Shown here piece after piece: positions 5,701 through 64,000 of a DNA stretch of 64,000 bases. The notes beneath the pieces were generated by a model, which had not been told where the DNA came from, ran no database searches, and saw nothing but the letters and a program-made list of their open reading frames with translations. The stretch comes from an uncultured Actinomycetes bacterium. Lineage in GTDB: Bacteria > Actinomycetota > Thermoleophilia > Solirubrobacterales > 70-9. Positions within the stretch are counted from its first letter, which is position 1. Each line of letters starts with the position of its first letter. Location of the stretch: positions 42,483-106,482 of the forward strand of contig CAVWKY010000004.1 of the NCBI GenBank assembly GCA_963755775.1, written 5' to 3'. The translations under genes were made by a program, and so were the position numbers.

Positions 5701-6561
5701 ATGGAGCCGAAGCACATTGACCCGGTCGAGTTCCGCGACGGCCAGCGCAAGCAATGGAATCAGGCCGCCACGGGCTGGCGCAAGTGGTCGGACTTGATCG
5801 ACCGGTCGGCGAGAGTCGTCAGCGAGCGCCTGGTCGAGATGGCCGAAGTCGGGCCCGGAAGCCGCGTGCTCGACGTAGCCGCTGGGTACGGCGAGCCGTC
5901 ACTCACCGCGGCTCGCGCCGCGGCCCCGGACGGCACCGTGGTGTCCACCGACATCTCCGCCGAGATGCTGGCCTACGGGCGCGAGCGTGCCGCGAACGCG
6001 GGCATCGACAACATCGAGTTCGTGGAGTCCGATGCGGCCGGCCTGGACTTTCCCGAGCAGAGCTTCGACGCGGCGTTGTCGCGCTTCGGGATCATCTTCG
6101 ACCCCGACGGCGAGGGCTCCGCGGGTGTAGTTCGTCGCCTCCTGAAGCCCGGCGGGCGGATGGCGATCGGTTCGTGGGGCCAGCCCGAGCAGGTGCCGTT
6201 CATAGCGATCCCGATGGGGGTTGCGATGCAGCGCCTCAACGTTCCGCCGCCGCCGCCCGGAACCCCTGGGCCGCTTTCCCGCCCCACTCCCGAGGCCCTC
6301 GGTGGCCTGCTGGGGGGCGGCGGGTTCTCGGAGGTGAAGGTGGAGGACGTCGAGGTCACCTTCGAGTGGGAGTCCCCCGAGGAGTTCACGACCTTCGTCC
6401 GGGAGATTGCCCCCCCGATCCGGGCGATCATCGACCCCCACCCCGAGGAGGTTCAGGACGAGACCTGGCAGGCGATCACGGATGCCATCCGGCAACAGGC
6501 GGCCGATGATGGGAGCGTGAAGCTCACGAATCTCGTCCTCATGGCAGTTGGTCGGGCTTAG
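5701..6561 (+). CDS. class I SAM-dependent methyltransferase
   Basis: Intact 286-aa ORF. It has motif I (RVLDVAAGYGEPS) and the post-I/II pattern (DISAEML...FVESDAAGLDFPEQSFDAALSRFG). AAGGAG lies just upstream of the ATG. Confidence 0.8.
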   Translation: MEPKHIDPVEFRDGQRKQWNQAATGWRKWSDLIDRSARVVSERLVEMAEVGPGSRVLDVAAGYGEPSLTAARAAAPDGTVVSTDISAEMLAYGRERAANAGIDNIEFVESDAAGLDFPEQSFDAALSRFGIIFDPDGEGSAGVVRRLLKPGGRMAIGSWGQPEQVPFIAIPMGVAMQRLNVPPPPPGTPGPLSRPTPEALGGLLGGGGFSEVKVEDVEVTFEWESPEEFTTFVREIAPPIRAIIDPHPEEVQDETWQAITDAIRQQAADDGSVKLTNLVLMAVGRA

Positions 6562-6593
6562 GTAGCGCAGGGGGAGAGCGCTCCAGCACGGCG

Positions 6594-7424
6594 ATGAAGT
6601 ACGGGATCGCCGTTTTCGCGACCGAGGACTCGGTCGATCCCGGCACCCTGGCGCGGATGGTCGAGGAGCGCGGGTTCGAGTCGCTGTTCTTGACCGAGCA
6701 CACCCACATCCCGGCGTCGCGCAGGACTCCGTATCCCGCGGGCGGGGAGTTGCCACCCGAGTACAGCCGCACGTATGACCCCTTTGTCGCGCTGACGGTC
6801 GCCGCCTGCGAGACCGAGAAGCTCCTCCTGGCGACCGGCATCTGCCTGGTGGTCCAGCGGGACCCAATCATCACCGCGAAGGAGGTCGCATCGGTGGATC
6901 GGCTCTCGGGGGGACGGTTCCTGTTCGGCGTCGGGGCAGGCTGGAACGTCGAGGAGATGGAGACCCACGGCACCGACCCGCGGCGCCGCTTCTCACTGAT
7001 GCGGGAGCGAATTGAGGCCATGAAGGCGATCTGGACTCAGGACGAGGCGTCCTACCACGGCGACCAGGTCGAGTTCGATCGCATTTGGTGCTGGCCCAAG
7101 CCGCTCCAGGACCCCCACCCGCCGGTCCTGGTGGGCGGCAACGGCGACCGAGTGCTGGATCGGGTGGTCGCCTTCGGCGACGAGTGGATGCCGAATCGCG
7201 TCTCCGGATTGCGGGACCGGATCGCGAAGCTCCAAGAGCTGGCGGCCGAAGCCGGACGCGATCCCATCCCAGTGACGCTCTCGGGCGCGAAGCCGGACCT
7301 CGACCTGATCGCGAGGGGCGAGGAGGCCGGCGTTCACCGCTGCGCCTTTTACATCCCGACCGCGGATGCGGGTGCGACCGAGCGCCACCTCGACCAGCTC
7401 GGCTTGGCGCTGGAGCTGTCCTAG
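6594..7424 (+). CDS. LLM-class (luciferase-like) F420-dependent oxidoreductase
   Basis: Intact 276-aa ORF. MKYGIAVFATEDSVDP...GFESLFLTEHTHIP...GICLVVQRDPIITAKEVASVDRLSGGRFLFGVGAGWNVEEME is typical of the Rv2161c-type LLM family. Confidence 0.8.
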   Translation: MKYGIAVFATEDSVDPGTLARMVEERGFESLFLTEHTHIPASRRTPYPAGGELPPEYSRTYDPFVALTVAACETEKLLLATGICLVVQRDPIITAKEVASVDRLSGGRFLFGVGAGWNVEEMETHGTDPRRRFSLMRERIEAMKAIWTQDEASYHGDQVEFDRIWCWPKPLQDPHPPVLVGGNGDRVLDRVVAFGDEWMPNRVSGLRDRIAKLQELAAEAGRDPIPVTLSGAKPDLDLIARGEEAGVHRCAFYIPTADAGATERHLDQLGLALELS

Positions 7425-8845
7425 AGCGGTGAACGGAGCGGGCTAGCCGCGGAGCGCTGCGGGCTCGCTATGCGTCGCCCCGCGGCGGCCCCGCGACGGC
7501 CCGGATGCCTGGCGATCGCCGGCTCGCGGCGGGGAGTGGGGCGTGAGGAGGGTGGGTTGTCGGCCGCCGGTGAGATGAGCCCGGACGGGGCGGCATCCGC
7601 AGGCCGCGGAGTCGTATCTGCCGGCGGAGAGGGGGTGGGCGGAACATCCACCGGGGCGGTGTTCACCGGTGCGGGTGGGGGAGTCGTCTGCACGGGGGCC
7701 GGCCCGTTGCCCACGGGGGAGGGGGGGTGAGGAGGATCGACCGGTGGCGGGGAGATGTCGGCCGGACGCCTTGGAGACAGGCCGGCTGGATCGGGTGTTC
7801 GCGGGACCTCCACTGCAGGCGGCGTGAGATCGGCCGGAGGCGTCGGAAGGTCGGCTGCCGGAGGAGTCACGTCGATAGGCCGGCTCGGCGGTGCGATGGG
7901 TCCGACGTCAACCGGCGGAGCCAGGGGGGAGAGGTCGATCGGGCCGACGTCGACCGGCGGTGGAGCGACCGGTGGCGGGTCGATCGGGCCGACGTCGATC
8001 GGCGGCGGTGAGACCGGTGGGGGATCGATGGGGCCGACGTCGATGGGAGGCGGAGCGACCGGTGGCGGGTCGATCGGGCCGACGTCGATCGGGGGCGGAG
8101 CGACCGGTGGCGGGTCGATCGGGCCGACGTCGATCGGCGGTGGTGAGACCGGCGGGGGATCGATGGGATTGACGTCGATGGGGGGCGGAGCGACCGGTGG
8201 CGGGTCGATCGGGCCGACGTCGATCGGCGGCGGTGAGACCGGCGGGGGATCGATGGGATTGACGTCGATGGGGGGCGGAGCGACCGGTGGCGGGTCGATC
8301 GGGCCGACGTCGATCGGCGGTGGTGAGACCGGCGGGGGATCGATGGGATTGACGTCGATGGGGGGCGGAGCGACAGGCGGAGGCGCAACGCCCGCCGGTG
8401 GCGGCGAGACGGGAGGCGGACTCGTGGGAGCAACACCAGGTGGCGCTGGGGCCATCCCGGGCGCCCCTGGGCCGGACGGGCCGGACGCGGTGCCGAACGG
8501 GACCTCCGATGGCCCGCCGCCGGGCACCGCATTACCGCTCGCGGTCGCGGCTTCGCCGGACTCCGACGGGCCCTTCGCCACCGCGGCGGGTGCCTGACGT
8601 AGCGCGGCGGCCGCGCTGGCCGGAGCGGTGGAACCGCTCGATCCCAAGTAGGCGACGGACGCGTCGCCGCTCGACCCTCCGAACGGGAGCCCCGTGAAAG
8701 CGACGAACGTGGCGAGCGCGAGGAAGATGATCAAGGTGCCGCTGGTCAGCGCCGTCGTCGCCCCGGCCCCCGCCAGGTAGGCGCGCAGGTGGGCTCGAGG
8801 ACGGGCGACGCCCGGCGTCGAGGCGGTGTGGGCAAGGCTCGTCAT
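7421..8845 (-). CDS. membrane-anchored proline-rich repeat protein
   Basis: ORF 7421..8881. The likely start is ATG 8845 (MTSLAHTAS...). One TM segment (LTSGTLIIFLALATFVAFTGL) is followed by a long extracytoplasmic Pro-rich region with about ten 15-aa units, PPPV[AS]PPPIDV[GN]PID. Confidence 0.65.
   Translation of the reverse strand: MTSLAHTASTPGVARPRAHLRAYLAGAGATTALTSGTLIIFLALATFVAFTGLPFGGSSGDASVAYLGSSGSTAPASAAAALRQAPAAVAKGPSESGEAATASGNAVPGGGPSEVPFGTASGPSGPGAPGMAPAPPGVAPTSPPPVSPPPAGVAPPPVAPPPIDVNPIDPPPVSPPPIDVGPIDPPPVAPPPIDVNPIDPPPVSPPPIDVGPIDPPPVAPPPIDVNPIDPPPVSPPPIDVGPIDPPPVAPPPIDVGPIDPPPVAPPPIDVGPIDPPPVSPPPIDVGPIDPPPVAPPPVDVGPIDLSPLAPPVDVGPIAPPSRPIDVTPPAADLPTPPADLTPPAVEVPRTPDPAGLSPRRPADISPPPVDPPHPPSPVGNGPAPVQTTPPPAPVNTAPVDVPPTPSPPADTTPRPADAAPSGLISPAADNPPSSRPTPRREPAIARHPGRRGAAAGRRIASPQRSAASPLRSPL
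7934..8375. repeat. tandem 45-bp (15-codon) coding repeat, about 10 copies, with a 90-bp higher-order unit
   Basis: Units 8101-8190 and 8281-8370 are identical, and 8191-8280 differs from them at one base. Flanking copies are progressively more diverged. Confidence 0.9.
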
Positions 8846-9022
8846 CGACCGGGTCGAATTACCCAGGCAGGCGGCCTTCAAACGCTCCCGCCGGCCCTTA
8901 CCGAGAAGTCCTTAGCCAATCCGAGGGTGTCCTCGGTTTCTTGCGCGGATTGGGTTACCCAGGATCTGGGTGCCGCGTCGATACCGCAGCGCACTCGTGG
9001 AGAGGGCAAGAGCCTCTGTCGC

Positions 9023-9254
9023 TCAGACTTCTCCGCTGTCCTCGTCTCGCTCGGTCGAGGAGATGTGGACGGGCTCACCGTACGCGGCCTGCGGGTCGTC
9101 GGGCTCCGGCTCTCCAGCGAGCTCTCGGGGATCCGGGGCGTCCGCACCGTGGGTGGCGTTCTCGATCAGCTCGCGCTCGCTCTCCTCGAACCCCTCCGCG
9201 GTACGGCGTACGGGCGATCGGCGGAGGCAAACGGGACTGTCCCCGGCCTAACAT
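9023..9254 (-). pseudogene. possible remnant of a small acidic protein gene (no usable start codon in frame)
   Basis: A minus-strand frame reads ...AEGFEESERELIENATHGADAPDPRELAGEPEPDDPQAAYGEPVHISSTERDEDSGEV with a stop at 9023-9025. That frame has no ATG, GTG or TTG. The only ATG (9254-9252) is in another frame. Confidence 0.25.
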
Positions 9255-9582
9255 GGACGAGGTTCACGAAGTGGCCTCCTGCGCTCATCTCGATCACGTC
9301 CACGTCAAGCGACTCCCGGACTCCGTGGAGGGCTGCGAGGATTGCCTCGCCACCGGCGACTCATGGGTGCACCTGCGTATCTGCCTGGAGTGCGGCAAGG
9401 TCGGCTGTTGCGACACCTCGCCGAACCGCCATGCCAGCGCCCATGCCCACAGCAGCGGCCACCCGCTCATCCGCTCGCTTCAGCCCGGGGAGGAATGGTG
9501 CTGGTGCTTCGTCGACGAGCAGGCGCTCCTGATTCCGGCGGTCAAGGGCGAAACGCGGATCCCGCCATCGCCTTTGGACTGA
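9253..9582 (+). CDS. UBP-type zinc-finger domain protein (109 aa)
   Basis: This is the internal ATG of ORF 8941..9582. CAHLDHV...CEDCLATGDSWVHLRICLECGKVGCCDTSPNRHASAHAHSSGHPLIRS...WCWCF has the Cys/His spacing of zf-UBP proteins. Confidence 0.7.
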   Translation: MDEVHEVASCAHLDHVHVKRLPDSVEGCEDCLATGDSWVHLRICLECGKVGCCDTSPNRHASAHAHSSGHPLIRSLQPGEEWCWCFVDEQALLIPAVKGETRIPPSPLD

Positions 9583-9643
9583 GGCGACCCAGCGCGCGCC
9601 GGTCCACGTGCGCGCTACCGCCTTTCGGCCAAACTCTCTGTGG

Positions 9644-10288
9644 TCAGGCCTGCGGGAGCGGACGGGCTTCGCCCGTCACCAGGGGCTCCACGATCGGCGG
9701 CGCCTTTGGCATGCTGTCCCGCTCTGAGTCGACGATCTCGAACCTGGATGCCTCGATCGTCCCCGCGGTGTCGCGGTTTGGATGGCAGCCGCGGCCGAAC
9801 CACCCCCACGGCCGCTCGAGGCGATCCTGCCAGAGCGCGCGTCTTTGGTCGCTTGCCCGGACGTGCTCCAGGAACAGGAGCCGCCCGCCGGGCTTCAGGA
9901 CGCGCGAGATCTCCGACAGGGCCGTTTTCGGATCGGGGATCGTGCAGAAGACGAGCGTGGCCACCGCCGTGTCGAAGCTGGCATCGGGAAAGGGCAACCG
10001 CTCGGCCCCCGCGCCGACGACCTGGGCGTCGAGCGGCGCGGCCTTCTTCTCGAGCTGGCGCCGCATGTGCTCGTCTGGCTCGGTCAAGACGAGCTCGGTG
10101 ACGGAGTCCGGGTAGAGCTCCAGGTTAATCCCGGTCCCGGCGCCGATCTCAAGCGTCCGCCCGTCGGCTCGGGCAAGCAGCGATCGCCGCTTGTCGCGCA
10201 GGCCGGCGTCCTCGGAGCCCTTCATGAAGCGGTCGTAGAGGCGGGCGAACAGCGGGCCCCAGAGCCGATCCGAGAGCTTGCCGGGCAT
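9644..10288 (-). CDS. class I SAM-dependent methyltransferase (Methyltransf_11-like)
   Basis: Intact 214-aa ORF with TLEIGAGTGINL and VLKPGGRLLFLEH. It sits 27 nt downstream of the arsI/cadI-type gene on the same strand. Confidence 0.75.
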   Translation of the reverse strand: MPGKLSDRLWGPLFARLYDRFMKGSEDAGLRDKRRSLLARADGRTLEIGAGTGINLELYPDSVTELVLTEPDEHMRRQLEKKAAPLDAQVVGAGAERLPFPDASFDTAVATLVFCTIPDPKTALSEISRVLKPGGRLLFLEHVRASDQRRALWQDRLERPWGWFGRGCHPNRDTAGTIEASRFEIVDSERDSMPKAPPIVEPLVTGEARPLPQA

Positions 10289-10315
10289 TGCCTGGAACCT
10301 ATCGCTTGAGGCCTC

Positions 10316-10780
10316 CTAAGAAGCCGGCACGGACACCTGACTCGCGCTGGCTGCATGCCCGCAGCACGCCGCTCCGCCGGCTTCCGAAGGGCCTTTGGGG
10401 TCCTCGGCGTCCTCATGCGTCGCGAACAGCTCCCAGGGGGTTCCATCCGGGTCGCGGACCCAGATCTTGTCCTGCTTCGCGTAGCAGCAGGTCGTGTCCA
10501 TCTCGTCGAAGGTGGCCAGGCCGGCCTTCTGGAGGCGCAGCTTCGCCATCAGGACGTCCTCCGTGGAGGACACTTGGATCCCGGCATGGTTGAAGGCGCC
10601 AAGTGACTCACCCCTCTCACCCTGGTTGAGGGTGAAGTTGAGTGCGGGATCTGCAACCTCGAACTTCGCGTATCCGGGTCGCACCTTCGAGGGCCCGACT
10701 CCGAAGAGCGCCTCGTAGAAGGGGATAGACAGCTCGACGTTGCTCACGGTGAGGGCGAGATGTGGTCTTAGGACAGCCAT
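10316..10780 (-). CDS. ArsI/CadI-family metalloenzyme (VOC/glyoxalase fold)
   Basis: MAVLRPHLALTVSNVELSIPFYEALFG...KVRPGYAKFEVADPALNFTLNQ...FNHAGIQV...AGLATFDEMDTTCCYAKQDKIWVRDPDGTPWELF, including the vicinal Cys pair (TTCCYA). ATG 10780 overlaps the arsR stop by 13 nt. Confidence 0.8.
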   Translation of the reverse strand: MAVLRPHLALTVSNVELSIPFYEALFGVGPSKVRPGYAKFEVADPALNFTLNQGERGESLGAFNHAGIQVSSTEDVLMAKLRLQKAGLATFDEMDTTCCYAKQDKIWVRDPDGTPWELFATHEDAEDPKGPSEAGGAACCGHAASASQVSVPAS

Positions 10781-11121
10781 GCGGAAAGTTCCTCCAGAGC
10801 TTCGGGGTTGACGTAGTAGTAGGCCCAAAGGCCTCGGCGCTCGGAACCGACGATCCCGGCCTCGCGCAGCACCTTCAGGTGGTGGGACACGGTCGGCTGC
10901 GAGAGGTCAAACAGCGGCACGAGCTCGCAGACGCAGACCTTGCCGGCATGCTTCTTGAGCACATCGACGAGTTGCATCCGAATCGGATCGCCGAGGGCCT
11001 TTGCCACCCGGCCCATGCGCTCGGCATCCTCGCGCTCAATGCTGGGATAGACCACTGGCTCGCAGCACGGCTCGCCGGCGGGACGTTTCTGCTTTGGGGC
11101 AAGCTCCAGATCGACGGACAT
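10768..11121 (-). CDS. arsR: ArsR/SmtB-family metalloregulator
   Basis: 117-aa ORF with LGDPIRMQLVDVLKKHAGKVCVCELVPLFDLSQPTVSHHLKVLREAGIV (winged HTH, CVC metal site) and an N-terminal CC pair. Confidence 0.85.
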   Translation of the reverse strand: MSVDLELAPKQKRPAGEPCCEPVVYPSIEREDAERMGRVAKALGDPIRMQLVDVLKKHAGKVCVCELVPLFDLSQPTVSHHLKVLREAGIVGSERRGLWAYYYVNPEALEELSAWLS

Positions 11122-11150
11122 CTATTTACATATATCAATTGAAATGACGA
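11122..11150. promoter_or_regulatory. 29-bp AT-rich divergent control region between arsR and the R2-like gene
   Basis: The sequence is ctatttacatatatcaattgaaatgacga. It contains the palindrome TCAATTGA (11135-11142). TTGA-N11-TCAA runs into the first codons of the plus-strand gene. There is too little room for normal leaders, so the transcripts are probably leaderless or very short-leadered. Confidence 0.45.
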
Positions 11151-12017
11151 ATGTCAATGGATAGGATCGCCTCGATGAGCGACGAGCGGCAGCTGAACGA
11201 TCCGCAGACCCTCTATCGCCGCTGGGAGGACTCGCAGTGGTCACCGTTTGAGATCGACCTTGGCAGGGACCAGGCGCAGTGGAGAGAGATGGACGGTGGC
11301 GGCCGGGACTTGGTCCTCTTCGTCGTCTGCTCGCTGATGGTGGCCGAGGAGCGGATCACGACCAAGTTCTCGGGCCTAGTCGGTGCCTACGGCTCGGAGG
11401 AGGAGGCGACCTTCCTGGCCACCCAGCAGGTCGACGAGGCGCGCCACATGCAGTTCTACGCGCGCTTCCGTGACGAGGTCATCTCGCAGCCCGATCTGAT
11501 CGCCAGGCACGTCGCGCGTGCCCGCGAGCACGTCTCCGCGGCCTTCCGCACACTCTTTGACCAGGCGCTGGTCCAAGCCCACGAGCGGTTGCTCGCCGAG
11601 CCCGAAAGCCAGGCGGCCAAGGTGGCCTTCGTCACGCTCTACCACCTGATCCTCGAGAGCACCCTTGGCCTGACGACCTTCAAGTTCACGACCGATTACC
11701 TAACCCGCGAGGGCCTTCTGCCCGGCTTCGTCGCTGGCTATTCGAGGATCCACCACGACGAGACGCGACACATCAGCTACGGCGTCTGGTTCTTGCGGGA
11801 GAGCGTCGCCGCCGACCCCGCCCTCGCCGACGTCGTCCGCGAGACGCTGCGGCAGCTCCTGCCATCGGTCGCTGAGTCGCTTTCACCATCCGACAACGGC
11901 TCCGGGAGCGTGGACTTCGATGCCCTCGGCGTCAGCGTCGACGACGTACGCGACTTCGCCCTCAACGGCCTCAAGCGCCGCCTCGAGTTGATCGGTGTGC
12001 GGCTGGAAGCACTGTGA
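11151..12017 (+). CDS. ferritin-like di-iron carboxylate protein, ribonucleotide reductase R2-like / R2lox-like
   Basis: Intact 288-aa ORF. All four metal-binding helices are recognisable: MVAEERITTKF, QQVDEARHMQFY, LYHLILESTLGL and RIHHDETRHISYG. Its stop overlaps the GTG of the next gene (GTGA). Confidence 0.7.
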   Translation: MSMDRIASMSDERQLNDPQTLYRRWEDSQWSPFEIDLGRDQAQWREMDGGGRDLVLFVVCSLMVAEERITTKFSGLVGAYGSEEEATFLATQQVDEARHMQFYARFRDEVISQPDLIARHVARAREHVSAAFRTLFDQALVQAHERLLAEPESQAAKVAFVTLYHLILESTLGLTTFKFTTDYLTREGLLPGFVAGYSRIHHDETRHISYGVWFLRESVAADPALADVVRETLRQLLPSVAESLSPSDNGSGSVDFDALGVSVDDVRDFALNGLKRRLELIGVRLEAL

Positions 12018-56626: not shown

Positions 56627-56925
56627 TGCCTCTCTGGGAGCCAAGGACGGTGGCGCGAGTGTCGAACGAAGCCCTCGAAGCTGCCGGGCTGCGGGAGTAG
56701 GCGAGTCGCAGGCCATGAGCCCGACGGGAATCAGCCGAAAATGGGGATGCGCCATCGGCCTGGCTGCGCCAAGATTGGAGTCGCCCGGCCAGCGCCCACC
56801 GAACGAAAGGCACGCATGAGTCCCACGCTACGACCTCGTCCACGGATGACCGCGAGCGCCAGGGGCGGTCGTCGGTCCGCGGAGGCGTTCGGCGACGATG
56901 GCGCCTACGGGCCGTGGGTGGCGTC

Positions 56926-58866
56926 ATGAGCGCGGCGAAGCCCAAGCGCATGGAGAAGCCGGCGCGCGGCGAACGCACAGACAGCAAACCGGCGCCTGCG
57001 CCCCAGAGCGCCGCGGCGCCCTCGCCCTTCCCACCGATCGCCGACTACGCCTTCCTGTCTAACTGCCACACGGGCGCCCTGGTCGCACCGGACGGCGCGA
57101 TCGACTGGCTCTGCGTACCGCGGTTCGACTCGCCGAGCGTCTTCGGCGCCCTGCTCGACCGCCAGAACGGCGCCTTCCGCTTCGGGCCCTTCGGGATCAA
57201 CGTGCCAACGGCACGGATCTACGAGCCGGGCACGAACACCATCGCGACGACTTGGCACACGCCGATGGGTTGGGTGCTGATCCGCGACGCGCTCACCATG
57301 GCCCCGAGTCAGGGGGAGGACAGGATCACGCCGCACACCCGGCCGCCGGCCGACGAGGACGGCGAGCACCTGCTCGTGCGCACGGCGCTCTGCATCGAGG
57401 GGAGCGTCGAGCTCGAGCTGGTCTGCGAGCCGACCTTCGACTACGGCCGCGCGCCGGCCGAATGGAGCCTGGGCGGCGACGACCGGCAGACCGCCGATGC
57501 GACCGGCGCCGGGCAGACGATCCGGCTGCGCTCCGACATGCAGCTGGGGATCGAGGGCGACCGCGTCCGGGCGCGGCACGCGCTCCAGAAGGGAGAGCAG
57601 ATCTTCTGCTCGCTCTCGTGGGCCGAGGAGCTGGCGTCGCCCGAGGACGTCGACGATGCGAACGCCAAGCTCGCCGCGACCGCGCACTTCTGGCGCGACT
57701 GGCTTGCCCGGGCCCGGATGCCCGACCATCGCTGGCGCGAGCCGATCCAGCGCTCGGCGCTGACGATCAAGGGCCTCACCTACATGCCAACCGGCGCCAC
57801 GGTCGCGGCGCTCACGACCTCGCTCCCCGAGACGCCCGGGGGCGAGCGCAATTGGGACTACCGCTTCACCTGGATGCGCGACACGACCTTCACCCTCCAG
57901 GCGCTGCATTTCCTCGACCTCGACTGGGAGGCGGACGAGTTCATGCAATTCGTTGCCGACCTCGAGGCGAATGAGGACGGGGCGCTGCAGATCATGTACG
58001 GGATCGACGGACGGCGCGACCTGACCGAGTCGACCCGCGACGAGCTCTCCGGCTATGCCGGGGCGCGTCCGGTGCGGATCGGCAACGGCGCCTTCGACCA
58101 GCGCCAGAACGATGTCTTCGGCGCAGTCTTGGACTCGATCATGCTCCACACTCAGCGCAGCCAGCGGCTCCCGCGCCGCCTGTGGCCGATCGTCCAGGCG
58201 CAGGCCGAGTGCGCGGTCAAGGTCTGGCGCGAGCCCGACCAGGGGATCTGGGAGGCGCGTGGTGCGCCGCGGCACTACGTCTCCTCGAAGCTGATGTGCT
58301 GGGTCGCGCTGGACCGGGCGGCAAGGCTGGGCGCGATCGCTGGTGATTCTGAGCTCGAGGTAAGCTGGCGGGCCACCGCCGAGGAGATCCGCGCCGACAT
58401 CCTCAAGCACGGGGTGCGCGACGGGGTCCTGCGCCAGCACTACGAGACCGAGGCGCTTGACGCCTCGACCCTGCTGGCGGCGATCTTCGGCTTCCTGCCC
58501 GGAAACGACGAGACCCTGCGACGCTCGGTCGAAGCGATCGCGGACGAACTCACCGAGGACGGGTTCGTGCTCCGCTACCGGACCGACGAGACCGACGACG
58601 GGCTCTCGGGCAAGGAGGGCAGTTTTCTGATCTGCTCGTTCTGGCTCGTCTCGGCGCTCGCGATCGTCGGCGCTGAGCAGCGCGCTCGCGACATGATGGA
58701 GCGCCTGCTGAGGGTCGCCTCGCCGCTCGGGCTCTACGCCGAGGAGTTCGACACCGGCACCGGCCTCCACCTCGGCAACTTTCCCCAGGCCTTCTCGCAC
58801 CTGGCCCTGATCGCGGCCGCGGCGCCGATCATTCTCGCCGAGCGGCTGCGCGAGTACAGGGGATGA
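56926..58866 (+). CDS. glycoside hydrolase family 15 (glucoamylase/trehalase-like)
   Basis: IADYAFLSNCHTGALVAPDGAIDWLCVPRFDSPSVFGALLD...RNWDYRFTWMRDTTFTLQAL...GNFPQAFSHLALI. Confidence 0.85.
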   Translation: MSAAKPKRMEKPARGERTDSKPAPAPQSAAAPSPFPPIADYAFLSNCHTGALVAPDGAIDWLCVPRFDSPSVFGALLDRQNGAFRFGPFGINVPTARIYEPGTNTIATTWHTPMGWVLIRDALTMAPSQGEDRITPHTRPPADEDGEHLLVRTALCIEGSVELELVCEPTFDYGRAPAEWSLGGDDRQTADATGAGQTIRLRSDMQLGIEGDRVRARHALQKGEQIFCSLSWAEELASPEDVDDANAKLAATAHFWRDWLARARMPDHRWREPIQRSALTIKGLTYMPTGATVAALTTSLPETPGGERNWDYRFTWMRDTTFTLQALHFLDLDWEADEFMQFVADLEANEDGALQIMYGIDGRRDLTESTRDELSGYAGARPVRIGNGAFDQRQNDVFGAVLDSIMLHTQRSQRLPRRLWPIVQAQAECAVKVWREPDQGIWEARGAPRHYVSSKLMCWVALDRAARLGAIAGDSELEVSWRATAEEIRADILKHGVRDGVLRQHYETEALDASTLLAAIFGFLPGNDETLRRSVEAIADELTEDGFVLRYRTDETDDGLSGKEGSFLICSFWLVSALAIVGAEQRARDMMERLLRVASPLGLYAEEFDTGTGLHLGNFPQAFSHLALIAAAAPIILAERLREYRG

Positions 58867-59200
58867 GGGGACCCTCCCGGGCCGAGTGATCGAGGGCGAG
58901 CTCCCGGCGCGGGGCGACGCCCGGCTGAGCCCTGGGGGCGGACGCCGCGGAGGCGGCGCTTGATCGTCCTGGAGGCGTGGATGCCCTGCTGCATGGCGAC
59001 CTCGGCCACGCCGGGCAGACCGTCGAGCCCCGCCATGTCGCCGATCGCGAACACCTCGGGGCGACCGGGCAGGGAACAGGCGGGCCGACCGCGACACGGC
59101 CTGCCCGGTCGCAGTCGCAATCGGAGGCGACTGGCTCGACGGTGGCGATCAAAGTGATCGCTACACAGGCGGTCGACCACGGCGAGATTTCTCGTCGCGT
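58867..59200 (-). pseudogene. remnant of a type-II NADH dehydrogenase / pyridine-nucleotide-disulfide oxidoreductase (C-terminal part, frameshifted)
   Basis: DRAGRVAVG lies in one frame and LPGRPEVFAIGDMAGLDGLPGVAEVAMQQGIHASRTIKRRLRG in another. No N-terminal FAD/NAD domains are present, and the plus-strand gene at 59343 occupies their place. Confidence 0.55.
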
Positions 59201-59342: not shown

Positions 59343-59963
59343 GTGACCGTCGCGTCCACACTGCCGTTGGCCTTCGTGATGATCGCCGGACCGCAGATCA
59401 TCAGCTCGTTCTTTCTCGCCACCAGCGAGAAGTGGAAGGGGGATTCCGTCGCATACGTCCTCGGCGCAGCGGTATCGCTGCTCGCCGTTGTCACGGTCGC
59501 TTACTTCGTCGCCAAAGGAATCAAGGACGGCAGCAGCCACGAGGGCTCGCAGTCGCAGACGATCGACTACGTGATCGTGGCCCTTCTCCTCGTTGCGATG
59601 GCCCACGTGTTCCTCCGCAGGAAGCAGTCGGAACCTCCAAAGTGGATGGGCAAGCTCGAGACGGCGACTCCCAGGTTCACCTTTACCCTGGGCTTTCTGC
59701 TCCTGGGTTTCTTTCCCAGCGACCTGATCTGCTCGGTCGTCATCGGCACCCACCTGGCTAATCACGGTGACCCCTGGTGGCACGCGCTTCCCTTTGTGTT
59801 CCTCACCCTCTTCCTGCTGGCCCTGCCCGCCCTGCTCGTCTTGGCGCTCGGCCAACGAGCCGAGACGTTGCTTCCCAAAATCCGTGACTGGATGGGCACG
59901 AACTCCTGGATCGTCAGCGAGATCGTCCTGGCGTTCTTCATCGTCATCGTGCTCAGCGGGTAG
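59343..59963 (+). CDS. GAP-family (Sap-like) membrane protein
   Basis: 206-aa ORF with PLAFVMIAGPQIISSFFLATSEKW... and six hydrophobic segments. Confidence 0.6.
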   Translation: MTVASTLPLAFVMIAGPQIISSFFLATSEKWKGDSVAYVLGAAVSLLAVVTVAYFVAKGIKDGSSHEGSQSQTIDYVIVALLLVAMAHVFLRRKQSEPPKWMGKLETATPRFTFTLGFLLLGFFPSDLICSVVIGTHLANHGDPWWHALPFVFLTLFLLALPALLVLALGQRAETLLPKIRDWMGTNSWIVSEIVLAFFIVIVLSG

Positions 59964-60109: not shown

Positions 60110-60574
60110 CTAAGTGCTCGCCAGCACCGTATGCGTCGAAAGCTCGGCGCTTCGCTCGAGCACATGAGCGAAGCCTTGCTCGAGCTGGCGCTTAAAGATC
60201 CGGTCCATTGCTCCTCCGATCACCGGGATCGGGATCTCGAACGATGACGTCCACACCGCGTTCGTGCCGGTGCCGTCGGCCTTGAGGCGGATGCTGCCGC
60301 CCCCGTGGCGGAACGGAAGCGTCTTGACGTGTCTGATCAGGTAGTCGAAGCGCCGCGGGGGGTCAAAGGCGGTGATTTCTTCCTCGAAGCGAAGCGGTCC
60401 GAGCCAGACCCAGCGGACGGCGCCGAGACCGTTCGGGTCAGAATCCCCGGGTTCGATCAGCTCCGAGCGGCGGATCCCGTCGAAGCGGTCGTAGCGCGCA
60501 TGGTCGGCGACGATCTCAAATACCGCCTCGGGTGGCGCGTCCAGCCGTCGTTCGACGCGAATCGACCGCCTCAT
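60110..60574 (-). CDS. SRPBCC-family (polyketide cyclase/START-like) protein
   Basis: RSIRVERRLDAPPEAVFEIVADHARY... Confidence 0.7.
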   Translation of the reverse strand: MRRSIRVERRLDAPPEAVFEIVADHARYDRFDGIRRSELIEPGDSDPNGLGAVRWVWLGPLRFEEEITAFDPPRRFDYLIRHVKTLPFRHGGGSIRLKADGTGTNAVWTSSFEIPIPVIGGAMDRIFKRQLEQGFAHVLERSAELSTHTVLAST

Positions 60575-61005
60575 CCTACGTCGCTCTGCTCCGCCAGTCC
60601 CATGTCCGACAGCGTAGCCCGCGGGGACTTCGTCGAGCGGTGTCCGAGGCGAAGCCGCGCTTGGGCTGGGAGCGCTCGCGCTTTGGCGTGAAAGCGAAAG
60701 CGCCAGCTCATTGGCGTCCTAGTCGCGGGAAATTCCAAATTTTCGCGCGAAGGTGAGAGCGCCTCCGCGGACCGTTCGGTTCCCACTGGCGTCCGCCGCT
60801 CGTCCTGCCGCGCGACCGGTGCTCGGAGGATGGCCGGCATTAGCTGGCCATACTTAGGTGGTGGCTCGCTCGGGAGAAGAGATCGTGTGGCGAGTCGTAG
60901 AGCTCTTCGCGGCGCCGGCAGCGCAGCCGCGATCAGTTCCCGGCGCGGACCGGTCATACGCATTGAGAAGCCGCGGCGACAGCGGCCGCCTACTGAGGAG
61001 GCGCG

Positions 61006-61173
61006 ATGAGCAAGCTTAGGTGTCATATCTCGATCTCCGTGGACGGTTTCGTCGCTGGCCCGAACCAGAGCGAGGAGAACCCGCTCGGCGAGGGCGGCGA
61101 GGGCCTTCACGACTGGGTGGTCCCGCTGGCCGCCTGGCGCCAAGCCCACGACACACTGACTCACCCTGAGTGA
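61006..61173 (+). pseudogene. 5' stub (55 codons) of a dihydrofolate-reductase-family (RibD C-terminal-like) gene
   Basis: GAGGAGG is followed by ATG 61006. MSKLRCHISISVDGFVAGPNQSEENPLGEGGEGLHDWVVPLAAWRQAHD reads into a stop at 61171-61173. In my experience family members are about four times longer. Confidence 0.5.
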
Positions 61174-61272
61174 AAGGCTGGTCCTTCGGCGGTCGCCGGA
61201 TTCGCCGCCTAGCCCTAATGGACTCTGCTGACGCACCGGCCTCCGCGTTGATCGACTCTCCCGGAGGTTCCA

Positions 61273-64000
61273 ATGCGCTCGCGATTCCGTCCCCACGACA
61301 CCATCGTCGCCTACCTGGCCGCCGTAACCGTGCTTGTCTGCCTGTTCGCGGTTCCGGCTGCGGCACTCGGACAGACCAAGCCCACAGAAGTCGGCTCGGA
61401 GGCAGAGCTGCGGGCCGCCTGGGCGGACCCGTTGCAGACCGAGATCGAGCTCACCGACGACATCTTCCTGCGGGCGTGCCTGCGTGGCGGGCCGATTCGG
61501 GAGTCCCAGCGTCCGATGACCCTGGATGGCAACGGCCACACGATCCGACAGACCTGCTTCGAGAAGCGGCTGCTGCGCCAGGACGGCACCGGCTTCCTCC
61601 TGATTAAGGACGTCACCCTCACGCGGGGCGGTAACGACGGCCCCGGCGCGGCGGTCACGACGCGGGGGGAGATCGTGCTGAAGGATTCCAAGGTGATGGA
61701 GAACCTCTCCGAGGAGCCGGGCGGCGGGATCTTCTCGCAACGAAGGGCGACGATCATTCGCTCCGTCATCACCGGCAACCTGGCGAACGACGACGGCGGA
61801 GGCGTTTACGCCCGCCGCGGCGGGATCCAGGTCTTCGACTCGATCGTCAGCAACAATCTCGTCGACGGCTCCGGCGGCGCACTGGGCTCGACCGGTGACA
61901 TCCTGGTCGTGCGCTCGCGCGTCGACGGCAACACCACCGACGGGGACGGTGGCGCCATCTACACCGACGAGGACGGGGACGTGACGGTGATCGACTCGAC
62001 CGTTGACGGCAACGACGCCGATGGCCCCGGCGGCGCGATCTTCACCCTCGAGGGCGACGTCACGATCGTCAACTCGACCCTGAACGGCAACCGTGCCGAC
62101 GATCGCGGTGGCGCGATCTCGGGCGAGGCCGACGTGACAGTAATCAACTCCACGATTGCCCGCAACGCCGCCGTCGCGCATGTCGGCGGGGGAATCTGGG
62201 CTCGCAGTGACCTGTTCGTTGCCAACTCGACGATCAGCAACAACTACGCGGAGGGCGAGGGAGGCGGCGTTCTCGCCGCCGGAACCGTCGGCCTCGTCAA
62301 CTCGACGGTCCTCGACAACATCGCGTCGGTCGCGGCGAACGTCGGGGCCGGCGCGCGGCTGGAAGCCTTCGGCTCGATCATCGGCCCCGCCGACACGAGC
62401 CCAACCGGGGGTCAGGTGCAGCCAACGGAGACGAATTGCCGCGTCACGGCTTCGACCTCGGCTGGCTACAACTTCGTCAGCGACGACTCCTGCGGCCTGG
62501 AGGGGCCCGGCGACGCGATCGGCAGCGGGGACCCGATGCTTGAGGCCCTCGCGGACAACGGGGGTAGGGGCGAGACGCGTTTGCCCCTGCCGGGCAGCCC
62601 GGTGCTGGACCGGATACCCGTCGGCCAATGCGCGTTTACACCGTTCGGCTACGACCTCGAGGGCGAGCAGCATCTCGCCCGGTTCGGAATCGACCCCCTG
62701 GCTCCGATCACCACGGATCAACGCGGGGTCGGTCGTCCGCAGGATCTGGGATGCGAGGTCGGTGCCGTCGAGCTTTCCTCGCTTCCCCCTGCTTCGCCAC
62801 CTTCGCTGCCCACGCCGCGCCAACCGGAGCCCGGAGATGGGCCGACCTCAGGAATGGGCGATCACGACCTCGACTCGTCGCGTCCCGTGGCACCGGCACT
62901 TCGGACGGTGCAGAAGGGACACAAGGCGTCCCCGCGCAGGCAGGATCGACGCCGCCACGGCGGGCGATCGCTTCGCTCGAAGGTCCGGAGGCTGGAGAAG
63001 CAGTTCGCCTTCAACCAGGGGAGAGTCGAGTTGATGGAGCGGATCGCGAGGAACTTCCGTCACTGGATGACCTGCGTTTCGCCGCTGCCGGTGAGCGAGT
63101 ATGGAGACCCCGATCACCGGTCAGGCTTCCTCTATGACGAGAGGGACGGAACCGGACTCGACCGCAGGCCGGCACTCGCGGTTGGCACCGGAAACCGGGG
63201 CCGCCCCGACTACCTGTTTCTCAAGTTCGCCCATCGCGACGACTGTCAAAGCGCTCCGACCAGGCCTGGGACCCCGGGCTCTCCGGGCACGGGCGACAAT
63301 GCCAAGCAGAGGGCTCCACAGGGGTCGCTTCGGTCGAGGGTTCGGGCTCTCGAGCGGGGGGTGACGGACCTCGACAGAAGGGCCGTACGCCTGGATTCAA
63401 TGTCCGAGCGTTTCGATGAGTGGGAGTCGTGCCTGTCGTGGATACCGGTGACCGAATACGGAGACCCGGATCGAGAGTTCGGATACCTCTTCGGGCGCCA
63501 AGGAAGTGAGCCCGGATACAGGCCGGCTCTGGCCGTCGACATCAGTGAATGGGACGATCCCGACTACGAGTTCCTCGCCTTCAAGGGCCGGGACCGACCG
63601 TTCCGTGAACGCGAGTGTGGAAATGAGCCGGGGGAGGAGGTCGACAAGGCCCCTGCGGCGGGGCGCTCAGCAAAGGCGCGCGGACCGCACCGGAGAGGCA
63701 AGTCCTCCCTGCGTGACAGGGCGGCGGACGTTGGCCAGGAGTTGAGCTCGCTGCAGGAGGAGGTGGAAGACCTGGGGGAGCCGGTGCAGGAGTTCGCGAT
63801 CTTCGATCAGTGCATGCACACGATCGGGGTCACCGAGTACGGAAGCAGGTCGGGCGGTTCTGGCTACCTCTACGGCGCAGGCCGCAGGCCCCGGCCCGCA
63901 TTCGCAATGGACATGCGCGGCTTGAACTCCCCCGAGTATCAACTCCTGGCATTTCCCGGGGAGGAGCCGCCCAGCATCGAGTGCAATGAAGACGCGGGAG
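61273..64000 (+). CDS. secreted beta-helix (Pmp/PbH1-type) protein with choice-of-anchor-Q-like domain and C-terminal tandem modules; 3' end outside window
   Basis: GGAGG lies 5 nt before ATG 61273. I translated all 909 codons to position 63999 and found no stop. There is a signal peptide (MRSRFRPHDTIVAYLAAVTVLVCLFAVPAAALG). The turns are of the type NSTxxxN...GG[GA][IV]. GYNFVSDDSCGLEGPGD...DPMLEALADNGGRGETRLPLPGSPVLDRIP...DQRGVGRP...CEVGAVE follows. The ORF is not in the supplied track, presumably because it has no stop in the window. Confidence 0.85.
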   Translation, partial: MRSRFRPHDTIVAYLAAVTVLVCLFAVPAAALGQTKPTEVGSEAELRAAWADPLQTEIELTDDIFLRACLRGGPIRESQRPMTLDGNGHTIRQTCFEKRLLRQDGTGFLLIKDVTLTRGGNDGPGAAVTTRGEIVLKDSKVMENLSEEPGGGIFSQRRATIIRSVITGNLANDDGGGVYARRGGIQVFDSIVSNNLVDGSGGALGSTGDILVVRSRVDGNTTDGDGGAIYTDEDGDVTVIDSTVDGNDADGPGGAIFTLEGDVTIVNSTLNGNRADDRGGAISGEADVTVINSTIARNAAVAHVGGGIWARSDLFVANSTISNNYAEGEGGGVLAAGTVGLVNSTVLDNIASVAANVGAGARLEAFGSIIGPADTSPTGGQVQPTETNCRVTASTSAGYNFVSDDSCGLEGPGDAIGSGDPMLEALADNGGRGETRLPLPGSPVLDRIPVGQCAFTPFGYDLEGEQHLARFGIDPLAPITTDQRGVGRPQDLGCEVGAVELSSLPPASPPSLPTPRQPEPGDGPTSGMGDHDLDSSRPVAPALRTVQKGHKASPRRQDRRRHGGRSLRSKVRRLEKQFAFNQGRVELMERIARNFRHWMTCVSPLPVSEYGDPDHRSGFLYDERDGTGLDRRPALAVGTGNRGRPDYLFLKFAHRDDCQSAPTRPGTPGSPGTGDNAKQRAPQGSLRSRVRALERGVTDLDRRAVRLDSMSERFDEWESCLSWIPVTEYGDPDREFGYLFGRQGSEPGYRPALAVDISEWDDPDYEFLAFKGRDRPFRERECGNEPGEEVDKAPAAGRSAKARGPHRRGKSSLRDRAADVGQELSSLQEEVEDLGEPVQEFAIFDQCMHTIGVTEYGSRSGGSGYLYGAGRRPRPAFAMDMRGLNSPEYQLLAFPGEEPPSIECNEDAG
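62968..64000 (+). repeat. three (or more) tandem, diverged protein-level modules of about 119-127 codons inside the open-ended ORF
   Basis: Modules start at 62968 (SLRSKVRRLEKQ), 63325 (SLRSRVRALERG) and 63706 (SLRDRAADVGQE). All three share F-x2-[WF]-x2-C-x3-[LI]-[PG]-V-[ST]-E-Y-G, G-[FY]-L-[FY], R-P-A-[LF]-A-[VM], P-[DE]-Y-x-[FL]-L-x-F and a second Cys. Confidence 0.8.

Follow-up and report, generated by a model that had tools for sequence, protein, structure and literature searches.

An exported beta-helix protein of a soil actinomycete appears to be fused to a three-module unit that relatives can encode separately

The 64,000-nucleotide stretch of DNA analysed here (the window), from an uncultured soil actinomycete (Actinomycetota), contains at its downstream edge a genuine, monocistronic plus-strand gene for a Sec-exported surface protein of 914 residues. 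Comparison with relatives identifies the protein as the fused form of two units, which can also be encoded separately. The first is a right-handed beta-helix with a choice-of-anchor-Q cap, and the second is a previously undescribed three-module family without a database match. Taking the evidence as a whole, we lean towards the reading that the protein is an exported two-unit fusion in which unit 2 is an assembly or tether body.

The gene starts at ATG 61273, with a GGAGG Shine-Dalgarno sequence 5 nt upstream (61263..61267, plus strand). Its frame (61273..64000, plus strand) contains no stop through base 64000, so that all 909 codons of the original prediction could be read in the sequence. 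NCBI/ENA already lists the prediction of an identical protein (P0001; 914 aa, 100% identity), from a contig of 113 kb, and this supplies the end that had been sought past the window, i.e. five further codons (GLFTN) and the stop. GC content at codon positions 1/2/3 is 0.675/0.521/0.821, and position-3 GC reaches 0.86–0.92 in 300-nt windows of the beta-helix section. Nucleotide differences from the homologous gene at locus L001 number 136/107/318 at plus-frame codon positions 1/2/3, and four further relatives gave the same pattern. The product has more than 2600 homologues conserved over their full length, a lower bound that counts the clusters at 90% identity that were scored. The closest relative in the genome contig scan is 79% identical over the whole protein.

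As had been pointed out, this gene is missing from the list of open reading frames (ORFs) for the window; the cause is mechanical, because ORFs running off the ends of the source go unlisted. The longest complete ORF listed in the region lies on the opposite strand (60571..62823, minus strand, 750 aa), and its length is what could be said for it as the true gene, with the plus frame open by chance. We give that reading practically no credence. The codon-position GC of the minus ORF (0.81/0.55/0.67) is the mirror of the coding plus frame, and comparison of position-3 GC on the two strands (0.821 versus 0.67, with 0.81 at position 1 of the minus ORF) favours the plus strand. Searches of Pfam and NCBIfam with the minus product found no family. 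Substitutions among relatives concentrate on plus-frame third positions, and the antisense stop-free stretch varies among them in both length and position (375–751 aa), whereas the plus product is conserved throughout. A minus-strand gene was thus rejected on GC3, substitution pattern and the lack of homologues, and the ORF is the motif-free antisense shadow it had been taken for. Long antisense shadows are general in this window of 68.5% GC. Elsewhere in the window, a real GH15 gene (56914..58866, plus strand) is overlapped by a longer minus-strand ORF (56905..59097, 730 aa). The warning that the list misleads on strand holds for ORFs called from the cut window but not for the public calls, which include the 914-aa plus-strand protein; the annotation side of the finding is of no consequence, since those calls are already on the right strand.

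The N-terminus is a predicted Sec signal peptide (aa 1–33, 61273..61371, plus strand; MRSRFRPH...VPAAALG/QTKP), in which inspection of the translation reveals a basic n-region, a hydrophobic core and an A-L-G cleavage site. In the AlphaFold2 (AF2) model, residues 8–25 form a lone helix with flanks of low pLDDT. The right-handed parallel beta-helix that follows (aa ~38–375, 61384..62397, plus strand) is built of PMP-type rungs. The roughly eight GGAI-type rungs noticed earlier are legible in the translation and were matched by PF02415 (Chlam_PMP; 7.6e-14, 50.8 bits versus a cut-off of 20.6), PF13229 (Beta_helix; 1.9e-10, 41 bits versus 25.9) and TIGR01376 (POMP_repeat; 1.3e-10, 40.6 bits versus 15). 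Its N-terminal cap (aa 38–124) matches PF20585 (Pectate_lyase_5, a putative adhesive domain; 9.5e-07, 29.5 bits versus 24.3), a family membership that would not imply lyase activity. AF2 predicted regular E-E-E three-strand rungs over residues 57–366 with pLDDT mostly 85–98. All Foldseek matches to this part were beta-helix proteins of a generic kind, among them Rhombotarget A (RbtA), a serine-rich-repeat adhesin (SRRP, 5nxk), tailspikes and AlgE4.

The beta-helix unit is capped at its C-terminal end by the choice-of-anchor-Q region (aa ~385–501, 62425..62775, plus strand), which contains four cysteines (389, 407, 453 and 494) and terminates in DQRGVGRPQDLGCEVGAVE. This ending has the form DQRGxxRPxxxxCDxGAxE, as in choice-of-anchor-Q proteins. 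The corresponding model, NF041518, scored 45.4 bits with the whole protein and 50.8 bits with residues 361–526 against a curated cut-off of 25, which bears out the assignment of a Cys-containing Q domain made from the translation; the match consists of two stretches separated by an insertion and is best at residues 479–501. Other surface proteins with NF041518 and PMP repeats share the signal peptide, the GGAI rungs and the Cys-containing Q cap. In proteins of the 'choice-of-anchor' class, such a domain precedes a C-terminal sorting or anchor signal that can be any of several alternatives, e.g. LPXTG, PEP-CTERM or T9SS (bioRxiv 10.1101/2023.03.06.531300). The window protein has no recognised LPXTG, PEP-CTERM, T9SS or GlyGly-CTERM signal after the Q domain; instead there is a 350-aa three-module unit. 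The alternative-anchor property is thus absent here, but it is a property of the class rather than a criterion of the model, so membership in NF041518 stands. In the literature, no paper was found that mentions 'choice-of-anchor Q'.

Beyond the Q cap lies a linker (aa 502–564, 62776..62964, plus strand; pI 11.2) that is first Pro-rich and then strongly basic. Composition and pLDDT mark it as disordered, with pLDDT below 50 over residues 516–562. It marks the fusion junction, being the position at which a stop, the next start and a new signal peptide fall in split relatives. Unit 2 then comprises three modules of ~100 aa, each with an amphipathic heptad helix of 33 aa, a five-stranded antiparallel sheet behind it and two cysteines that are invariant. 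Module R1 (aa 565–662, 62965..63258, plus strand; HMM iE 1.4e-30) has a basic helix and Cys601 and Cys658, R2 (aa 685–786, 63325..63630, plus strand; 7e-39) a neutral helix and Cys720 and Cys782, and R3 (aa 812–909 in the window, continuing to 914; 63706..64000, plus strand; 2e-32) an acidic helix and Cys847 and Cys904. The modules are homologous to one another (pairwise phmmer E 1e-6 to 1e-18). Their helices carry an a/d hydrophobic stripe, and the family mean net charge of the helix is +5.2 in R1, 0.1 in R2 and -8.1 in R3. Across 62 sequences of 41–87% identity, all six module cysteines are invariant, as are the SEWDDPDY loop in the R2 sheet and the motif GEEPPxIECNEDA at the C-terminal end of R3. 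The two cysteines of each module probably form an extracellular disulfide. Modelling of unit 2 alone gave a pLDDT of 84.7 and a pTM of 0.82, and the full-length model reached a pTM of 0.78 despite the 47-residue disordered linker. The C-terminus of the whole protein (...FPGEEPPSIECNEDAGGLFTN) is acidic and has neither a hydrophobic segment nor LPXTG; neither a transmembrane signal nor any other kind of sorting signal was seen there by eye, and none of the sorting-signal families of Pfam or NCBIfam matched.

Searches with residues 553–909 against Pfam (E up to 1) and NCBIfam (E up to 10) returned no known domain. VPA1267_fam on the R2 helix scored 15.9 bits versus a cut-off of 90 and was dismissed as chance. 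The module profile found only coiled-coil noise among PDB sequences, and Foldseek with unit 2 gave a best E of 3.6 against the PDB and of 0.2 against BFVD, the latter with an rmsd above 30 Å. An impression of a cystatin-like helix-on-sheet from the secondary-structure string was set aside, there being no counterpart in PDB or BFVD. Among 1.84e9 proteins, just 243 representatives carried unit 2 at E<=1e-3; the carriers that were identified are soil Actinomycetota only (Nocardioides, Solirubrobacterales, Rubrobacter and Gaiellaceae), and cultured Nocardioides species, N. euryhalodurans (P0082) and N. mangrovi (P0099), have the fused gene. Every long representative that was inspected among the 243 proved to be a fragment or a frameshifted part of a member of this beta-helix family. 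In the window and 15 homologous loci, the module HMM found exactly three copies per locus and none elsewhere, with no extra copies or other architectures.

That the two units are separable is seen in gene structure. Of the best 120 homologues, 102 are fused and 10 are of a split type in which the beta-helix product stops 3–6 residues past the Q motif. The same was seen at seven inspected loci (L017, L018, L019, L020, L022, L023 and L024), where the modules are encoded by one or two following genes with overlapping stop and start codons, each with its own signal peptide. For example, L018 encodes a 509-aa beta-helix protein and, across an ATGA overlap, a 403-aa protein consisting of a signal peptide and R1-R2-R3; L020 has three genes, for the beta-helix with Q, a signal peptide with R1-R2, and a signal peptide with R3. 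Only two modules are present at L017. The breaks between genes always coincide with unit or module boundaries. Proteins consisting of a signal peptide and R1-R2-R3 also occur as diverse stand-alone entries (P0122–P0125, P0127, P0128, P0132 and P0133), and an R3-type module was seen as a lone protein with its own signal peptide.

Assembly or sequencing frameshifts could in principle produce split genes, leaving the 914-aa fusion as the sole real form and its fission uninformative. The gene is indeed in pieces, with no new signal peptides, at loci from nanopore-derived metagenome-assembled genomes (L002, L004, L006, L008 and L013–L015), and at L019 the signal peptide of the second gene is out of frame with its ATG. 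At L017, L018, L020, L022, L023 and L024, on the other hand, the upstream gene ends at one constant place and the downstream genes open with canonical signal peptides foreign to the fused linker. These six loci were drawn from independent assemblies, Illumina as well as long-read (ENA, JGI, Logan and NCBI), and the eight R1-R2-R3 representatives with signal peptides are mutually divergent. We therefore regard artefact as a very improbable source of the split forms. The domain order that had been called unusual, at least 400 residues following a Q domain, is real, but it has a simple explanation: an autonomous unit 2 is fused behind the choice-of-anchor-Q domain. In the split relatives the Q domain lies at the C-terminal end of its protein, where it had been expected.

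Just upstream of the gene is a truncated RibD_C-type reductase remnant of 55 codons (61006..61173, plus strand). It shares 75% identity across 48 aa with the N-terminal end of the RibD_C gene product at L018 (212 aa); the fragment alone gave no Pfam match. The remnant lies outside the system and marks synteny with this split-type locus. Clustering of GC3-called ORFs from the window and the 15 loci revealed no common partner genes beyond the family itself and thus no hint of function, and the neighbours in the window are unrelated (GH15, an SfLAP-type membrane protein, SRPBCC and enoyl-CoA hydratase).

These observations suggest the following arrangement. Unit 1 (aa 34–501) is a right-handed beta-helix of the PMP type, sealed at its C-terminal end by a disulfide-containing Q cap, and unit 2 (aa 565–914) is attached to it through the disordered basic linker. 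The helices of R1 (basic), R2 (neutral) and R3 (acidic) may pack as one compact pseudo-trimeric body, and where the units are separate polypeptides this body would hold the beta-helix unit non-covalently. Such bundling and docking is suggested by the pTM values, the charge complementarity of the helices and the logic of fusion and fission. Unit 2 may accordingly be named a candidate extracytoplasmic assembly or tethering unit. More speculatively, it could stand where other choice-of-anchor proteins have their sorting or anchor signal. In that position it would tether or organise the beta-helix on the cell envelope, with R1 and the basic linker turned towards anionic polymers of the wall. The two modules of L017 indicate that an arrangement of three helices is not universal. 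A bolder version, which we consider rather unlikely, is that the three-module unit is a new fold and a new kind of non-covalent surface-display device in Actinomycetota, whose separately secretable subunits zip into a disulfide-stabilised, heterotrimer-like body, capture the Q end of the passenger and keep it on the cell envelope, a further 'choice of anchor' supplied in trans.

The beta-helix itself bears on what unit 2 does. Among sequences with an overall identity of about 50%, dozens of residues in its rungs are invariant, a degree of conservation that is unusual for an adhesin and closer to the level of enzymes, so the beta-helix could be an enzyme. If it were, unit 2 might serve substrate targeting rather than anchoring, as a lectin- or CBM-like head that binds an extracellular polymer and brings an enzyme to it, for instance a polysaccharide lyase, an epimerase or a depolymerase, and not as a tether to the envelope. 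Tailspike depolymerases, the AlgE4 epimerase and lyases of alginate and pectate are among the structural neighbours, the invariant acidic loops YDERDGTG, SEWDDPDY and ECNEDA could bind Ca2+ or sugars, and binding modules are typically tandem C-terminal repeats. The enzymes that Foldseek matched are nevertheless weak hits of a generic kind (tailspikes at E of 4e-3 or more, epimerases and lyases at 0.08 or weaker, TM 0.2–0.47), and no catalytic family in Pfam or NCBIfam scored above threshold. Moreover, a separately secreted binding module would be useful only if docked on the enzyme, so the assembly step of the tether reading would still be required. We give a binding head only a modest chance. 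Alternatively, unit 2 could be devoted to helping the beta-helix fold or be secreted outside the cytoplasm, or to inhibiting it, in the manner of a partner chaperone or removable latency subunit. Tight translational coupling of the two genes and a protease-accessible linker in the fused form would suit such a role. We think it improbable, given that unit 2 shows the strong conservation of a structural domain, including probable disulfides of its own and an invariant motif at the C-terminus, that it is itself divided into separately secreted modules, which fits a simple chaperone poorly, and that known foldases showed no similarity to it by PDB Foldseek or the PDB-sequence profile.

Of the known structures matched to the beta-helix part, RbtA (TIGR04212; PDB 9cdu/9cdv) comes closest (Foldseek E 2.5e-4), but the sequence match is weak (E 0.071; 18.9 bits for TIGR04212 versus an equivalog cut-off of 295), TM-scores are only 0.2–0.36, and the window protein has no GlyGly-CTERM tail. 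The function of RbtA was not established in the paper reporting its structure (PMC12643943). Chlamydial Pmps and type V autotransporters share the Chlam_PMP repeat family and a beta-helical passenger, but the window protein has no C-terminal beta-barrel translocator and no autotransporter family match, and its C-terminal 350 residues are predicted as helix and small sheets, unlike an autotransporter barrel. Actinomycetota are usually viewed as monoderm, with no outer membrane to hold a beta-barrel. The serine-rich-repeat adhesin of Lactobacillus reuteri (PDB 5nxk/5ny0), which is LPXTG-anchored and SecA2-exported, is a beta-solenoid and a top-ranked match (E 3e-3 to 4e-2) at 12–13% identity, but it has no equivalent of unit 2. 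SLH anchors consist of a tandem triplet of repeats at one terminus of a secreted surface protein; the repeats build a pseudo-threefold body around a helical core, and this body attaches to wall polymers without covalent bonds. The likeness of unit 2 to them is an analogy, with no tested homology: there was no Pfam match to SLH, and neither Foldseek against the PDB (best E 3.6) nor the PDB-sequence profile returned any SLH structure. The modules of unit 2, at about twice the length of SLH repeats, have probable disulfides and can be made as polypeptides of their own.

By 'Rosetta-stone' logic, the repeated fusion and fission exactly at module borders predict, unusually cleanly, a secreted complex of several subunits. 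Unit 2 is confidently modelled, strongly conserved and extracytoplasmic, with no counterpart in Pfam, NCBIfam, PDB or Foldseek searches. As cultured Nocardioides carry the fused gene, the tether idea is directly testable. If the tether were proven, a non-covalent anchor supplied in trans would join LPXTG/sortase, SLH, LysM and others, and this reading of unit 2 would account for the part behind the choice-of-anchor-Q domain in a family of proteins that is widespread.

The plus-strand frame that begins at ATG 61273, preceded by a GGAGG at a distance of 5 nt, was translated and stayed open for 909 codons to the window edge (61273-64000), as the original prediction had stated. NCBI/ENA already lists, on a 113-kb contig, a predicted 914-aa protein (P0001) that is 100% identical to this product. 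As P0001 ends in ...ECNEDAGGLFTN, the window is short of only 5 codons and the stop. GC content at codon positions 1/2/3 of the plus frame was 0.675/0.521/0.821, with position-3 values of up to 0.86-0.92 over the β-helix part, whereas the minus-strand ORF at 60571..62823 gave the mirror image (0.81/0.55/0.67); this comparison of both strands favored the plus strand. We also compared the window gene with five homologous loci in a codon-by-codon alignment. Most nucleotide differences fell at third positions of the plus frame (136/107/318 at positions 1/2/3 against locus L001), and the longest antisense stop-free stretch varied in size (375-751 aa) and position between relatives. The minus-strand ORF, described earlier as devoid of motifs, had no family match in Pfam or NCBIfam.

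A real plus-strand ORF with an antisense shadow was thus a correct but ordinary observation. The ORF was missing from the ORF list because the listing leaves out ORFs that run off the source sequence, and in this window, with its G+C content of 68.5%, it is normal for an antisense shadow to exceed the true gene in length. The 650-aa GH15/trehalase-like glucoamylase encoded at 56914-58866 on the plus strand lies opposite a longer minus-strand shadow ORF of 730 aa (56905-59097), showing that the phenomenon is general in the window.

The original description of the N-terminal 500 residues was correct: Pfam, NCBIfam and an AF2 model agreed with the predicted β-helix and choice-of-anchor-Q domain, and residues 1-33 resemble, by inspection, a signal peptide of the Sec type. 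Pfam matches between residues 38 and 358 were Chlam_PMP (7.6e-14), Beta_helix (1.9e-10) and Pectate_lyase_5 (9.5e-07), and NCBIfam matched POMP_repeat. The choice_anch_Q model (NF041518; cut-off 25) scored 45.4 bits with the whole protein and 50.8 bits with residues 361-526, its best stretch being the DQRGVGRPQDLGCEVGAVE motif at residues 479-501. The protein scored above the thresholds of both the PMP/β-helix and choice-of-anchor-Q families and is a member of each. The full-length AF2 model, built on a 62-sequence alignment (A3), had a pLDDT of 80.1 and a pTM of 0.78; in it a long β-helix leads through a cap and a disordered segment (residues 516-562) to three helix-plus-sheet modules. Foldseek returned only generic β-helix proteins for this model (TM-scores 0.2-0.47), among them RbtA (9cdu, E 2.5e-4), L. 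reuteri SRRP, phage tailspikes, AlgE4 and lyases; at 18.9 bits vs 295, the protein does not qualify as an RbtA equivalog. The β-helix rungs (61273-62397; residues 93-332) were unusually invariant for a surface protein, as in CFEKRLLRQDGTGF, NLANDDGGGVYARRGG, VDGSGGA.GSTGD, TTDGDGGA.Y.DEDGD, ADGPGGAIFTL and NRADDRGGAISGE. Their recurring D-G-x-G-G motif and flanking acidic residues might be candidates for metal binding or catalysis.

Pairwise phmmer comparisons (E 1e-6 to 1e-18) divided the C-terminal 350 residues, here called unit 2, into three homologous plus-strand modules: R1 (residues 565-662), R2 (685-786) and R3 (812-914). AF2 modeled residues 553-909 (pLDDT 84.7, pTM 0.82) as modules that each comprise a helix of 33-35 residues and then five β-strands. 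Each contains two Cys residues, and all six were invariant in 62 homologues, as were the loops SEWDDPDY in R2 and GEEPPxIECNEDA at the C-terminus. The helices bear an a/d-type hydrophobic stripe and have a family-conserved net charge of +5.2 in R1, 0.1 in R2 and -8.1 in R3 (n = 62 each); the pI is 9.8 for R1 and 11.2 for the Pro-rich linker that precedes it. We infer that the three helices would pack together and unit 2 against the β-helix-Q unit. This arrangement is consistent with the conservation of helix charge (basic, neutral and acidic), with the high pTM obtained for the three modules and with the full-length pTM of 0.78 despite a 47-residue disordered linker.

Pfam and NCBIfam contained nothing meaningful for residues 553-909. 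VPA1267_fam aligned with the R2 helix (63319-63438; residues 683-722) at E 0.011-0.015 and 15.5-15.9 bits (cut-off 90), and was judged a chance match. A 33-sequence module profile recovered only coiled-coil noise from all PDB sequences, and just 243 matches at E<=1e-3 in an exhaustive search of 1.84 billion representative proteins. The best Foldseek hits of unit 2 had E 3.6 in the PDB and E 0.2, with an absurd rmsd, in BFVD. The fold of unit 2 is probably novel. SLH proteins also contain triple tandem repeats, a resemblance by analogy only; the window protein had no sequence or fold match to them.

A homologue search scored >2600 matches among 8000 candidates. Nocardioides, Solirubrobacterales and many soil MAGs kept the whole architecture, with identities of 48-66% and coverage of 96-100%, and scanning genomes with the C-terminal 400 aa found further loci in Rubrobacter/Rubrobacteraceae and Gaiellaceae MAGs. 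All 15 genome loci contained exactly three modules, with no copies elsewhere. Among the best 120 matches, 102 were fused and 10 were β-helix proteins stopping 3-6 residues past the C[DE]xGAxE motif. No neighboring gene was conserved across the window and the 15 loci. The immediate upstream genes, encoding an SfLAP/Sap-type integral membrane protein (59343-59963, plus strand) and an SRPBCC (Polyketide_cyc2) protein (60110-60574, minus strand), were not kept beside the family in the other loci examined. A truncated RibD_C-type reductase remnant of 55 codons (MSKLRCHISISVDGFVAGPNQ...; 61006-61173, plus strand; 75% identity over 48 aa) matches the N-terminus of an intact 212-aa gene upstream of the β-helix gene in the syntenic locus L018.

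L018, on a 262-kb contig, was one of seven split-type loci inspected (L017, L018, L019, L020, L022, L023 and L024). Its 509-aa β-helix-Q protein ends ...CDVGAVELGVATP*, and the second gene, joined by an ATGA overlap, encodes 403 aa that start MIRRRLALLLLAPLAVAAAGSAAA... and continue with R1-R2-R3. L019 has the same layout, the signal peptide of its second gene being probably disrupted by an assembly indel. An ATG (TGATGCGCCGCCGC...) follows the L019 β-helix stop, and a hydrophobic signal peptide-like stretch, AVLLGFLAVCAVGSGAAASS, lies in a different frame (6539-6661); the module gene as called therefore starts without a signal peptide. At L019 alone among these loci, the gene directly upstream (4055-4993, plus strand) ends 8 nt before the β-helix gene, and its 312-aa product matches HemolysinCabind (RTX) weakly. 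L022, L023 and L024 have two genes each, with TGATG, ATGA and GTGA junctions. In L020 the β-helix-Q gene is followed by signal peptide-R1-R2 (275 aa) and signal peptide-R3 (137 aa) genes, and in L017 by genes for a signal peptide with one module and for signal peptide-R3. The first L017 module combines an R1-type YDERDGTG loop with a SDWDDPDY loop and an EPGEGVD end of R2 type, and looks like an R1/R2 hybrid. This two-module form (120-539) points to loss or recombination of modules and means that not every member has a strict three-module body.

At L016 and L021 the end of an R2-type ORF precedes a separate signal peptide-R3 gene. We also found eight stand-alone signal peptide-R1-R2-R3 representatives, divergent from each other, and several signal peptide-R3 single-module proteins. 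Split points always fell on the border of a unit or of a module, and each piece carried a signal peptide of its own. In the MAG assemblies L002, L004, L006, L008, L013, L014 and L015, several being MFD bins, the gene lies in 2-4 overlapping ORF pieces that lack new signal peptides (match regions ~8000-11300; 345-2432 in L008). Such broken genes, a frameshift artefact of nanopore MAGs, probably reflect homopolymer indel errors and are distinct from the genuine split forms.

The odd domain order noted originally holds in that a tail does follow the Q domain, but the tail is a separate unit with its own gene or genes in split relatives. Judged from these arrangements, the window gene is a β-helix-Q 'passenger' fused to an autonomous, independently exported partner. 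By Rosetta-stone logic, the exact boundaries at which fusion and fission occur, together with the obligatory adjacency and the translational coupling of the genes, suggest that the parts act as one extracytoplasmic complex. The protein has no barrel and hence is not an autotransporter. Choice-of-anchor domains are named for the alternative anchoring signals that follow them (10.1101/2023.03.06.531300), and inspection of the P0001 C-terminus revealed no anchoring signal after the Q domain. For this reason we favor, speculatively, unit 2 as a non-covalent tether or organizer occupying the anchor-signal position, with tethering possibly via the very basic linker and R1. The main rival makes unit 2 a ligand- or substrate-binding head that serves a β-helix enzyme. 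Rungs conserved at a level typical of enzymes, and Foldseek neighbors that include depolymerases, an epimerase and lyases, favor such a head, which would still need an assembly step. The hidden ORF and its shadow are themselves ordinary, and the odd domain order leads to an undescribed three-module extracytoplasmic unit, modestly new, that occurs both fused and split.
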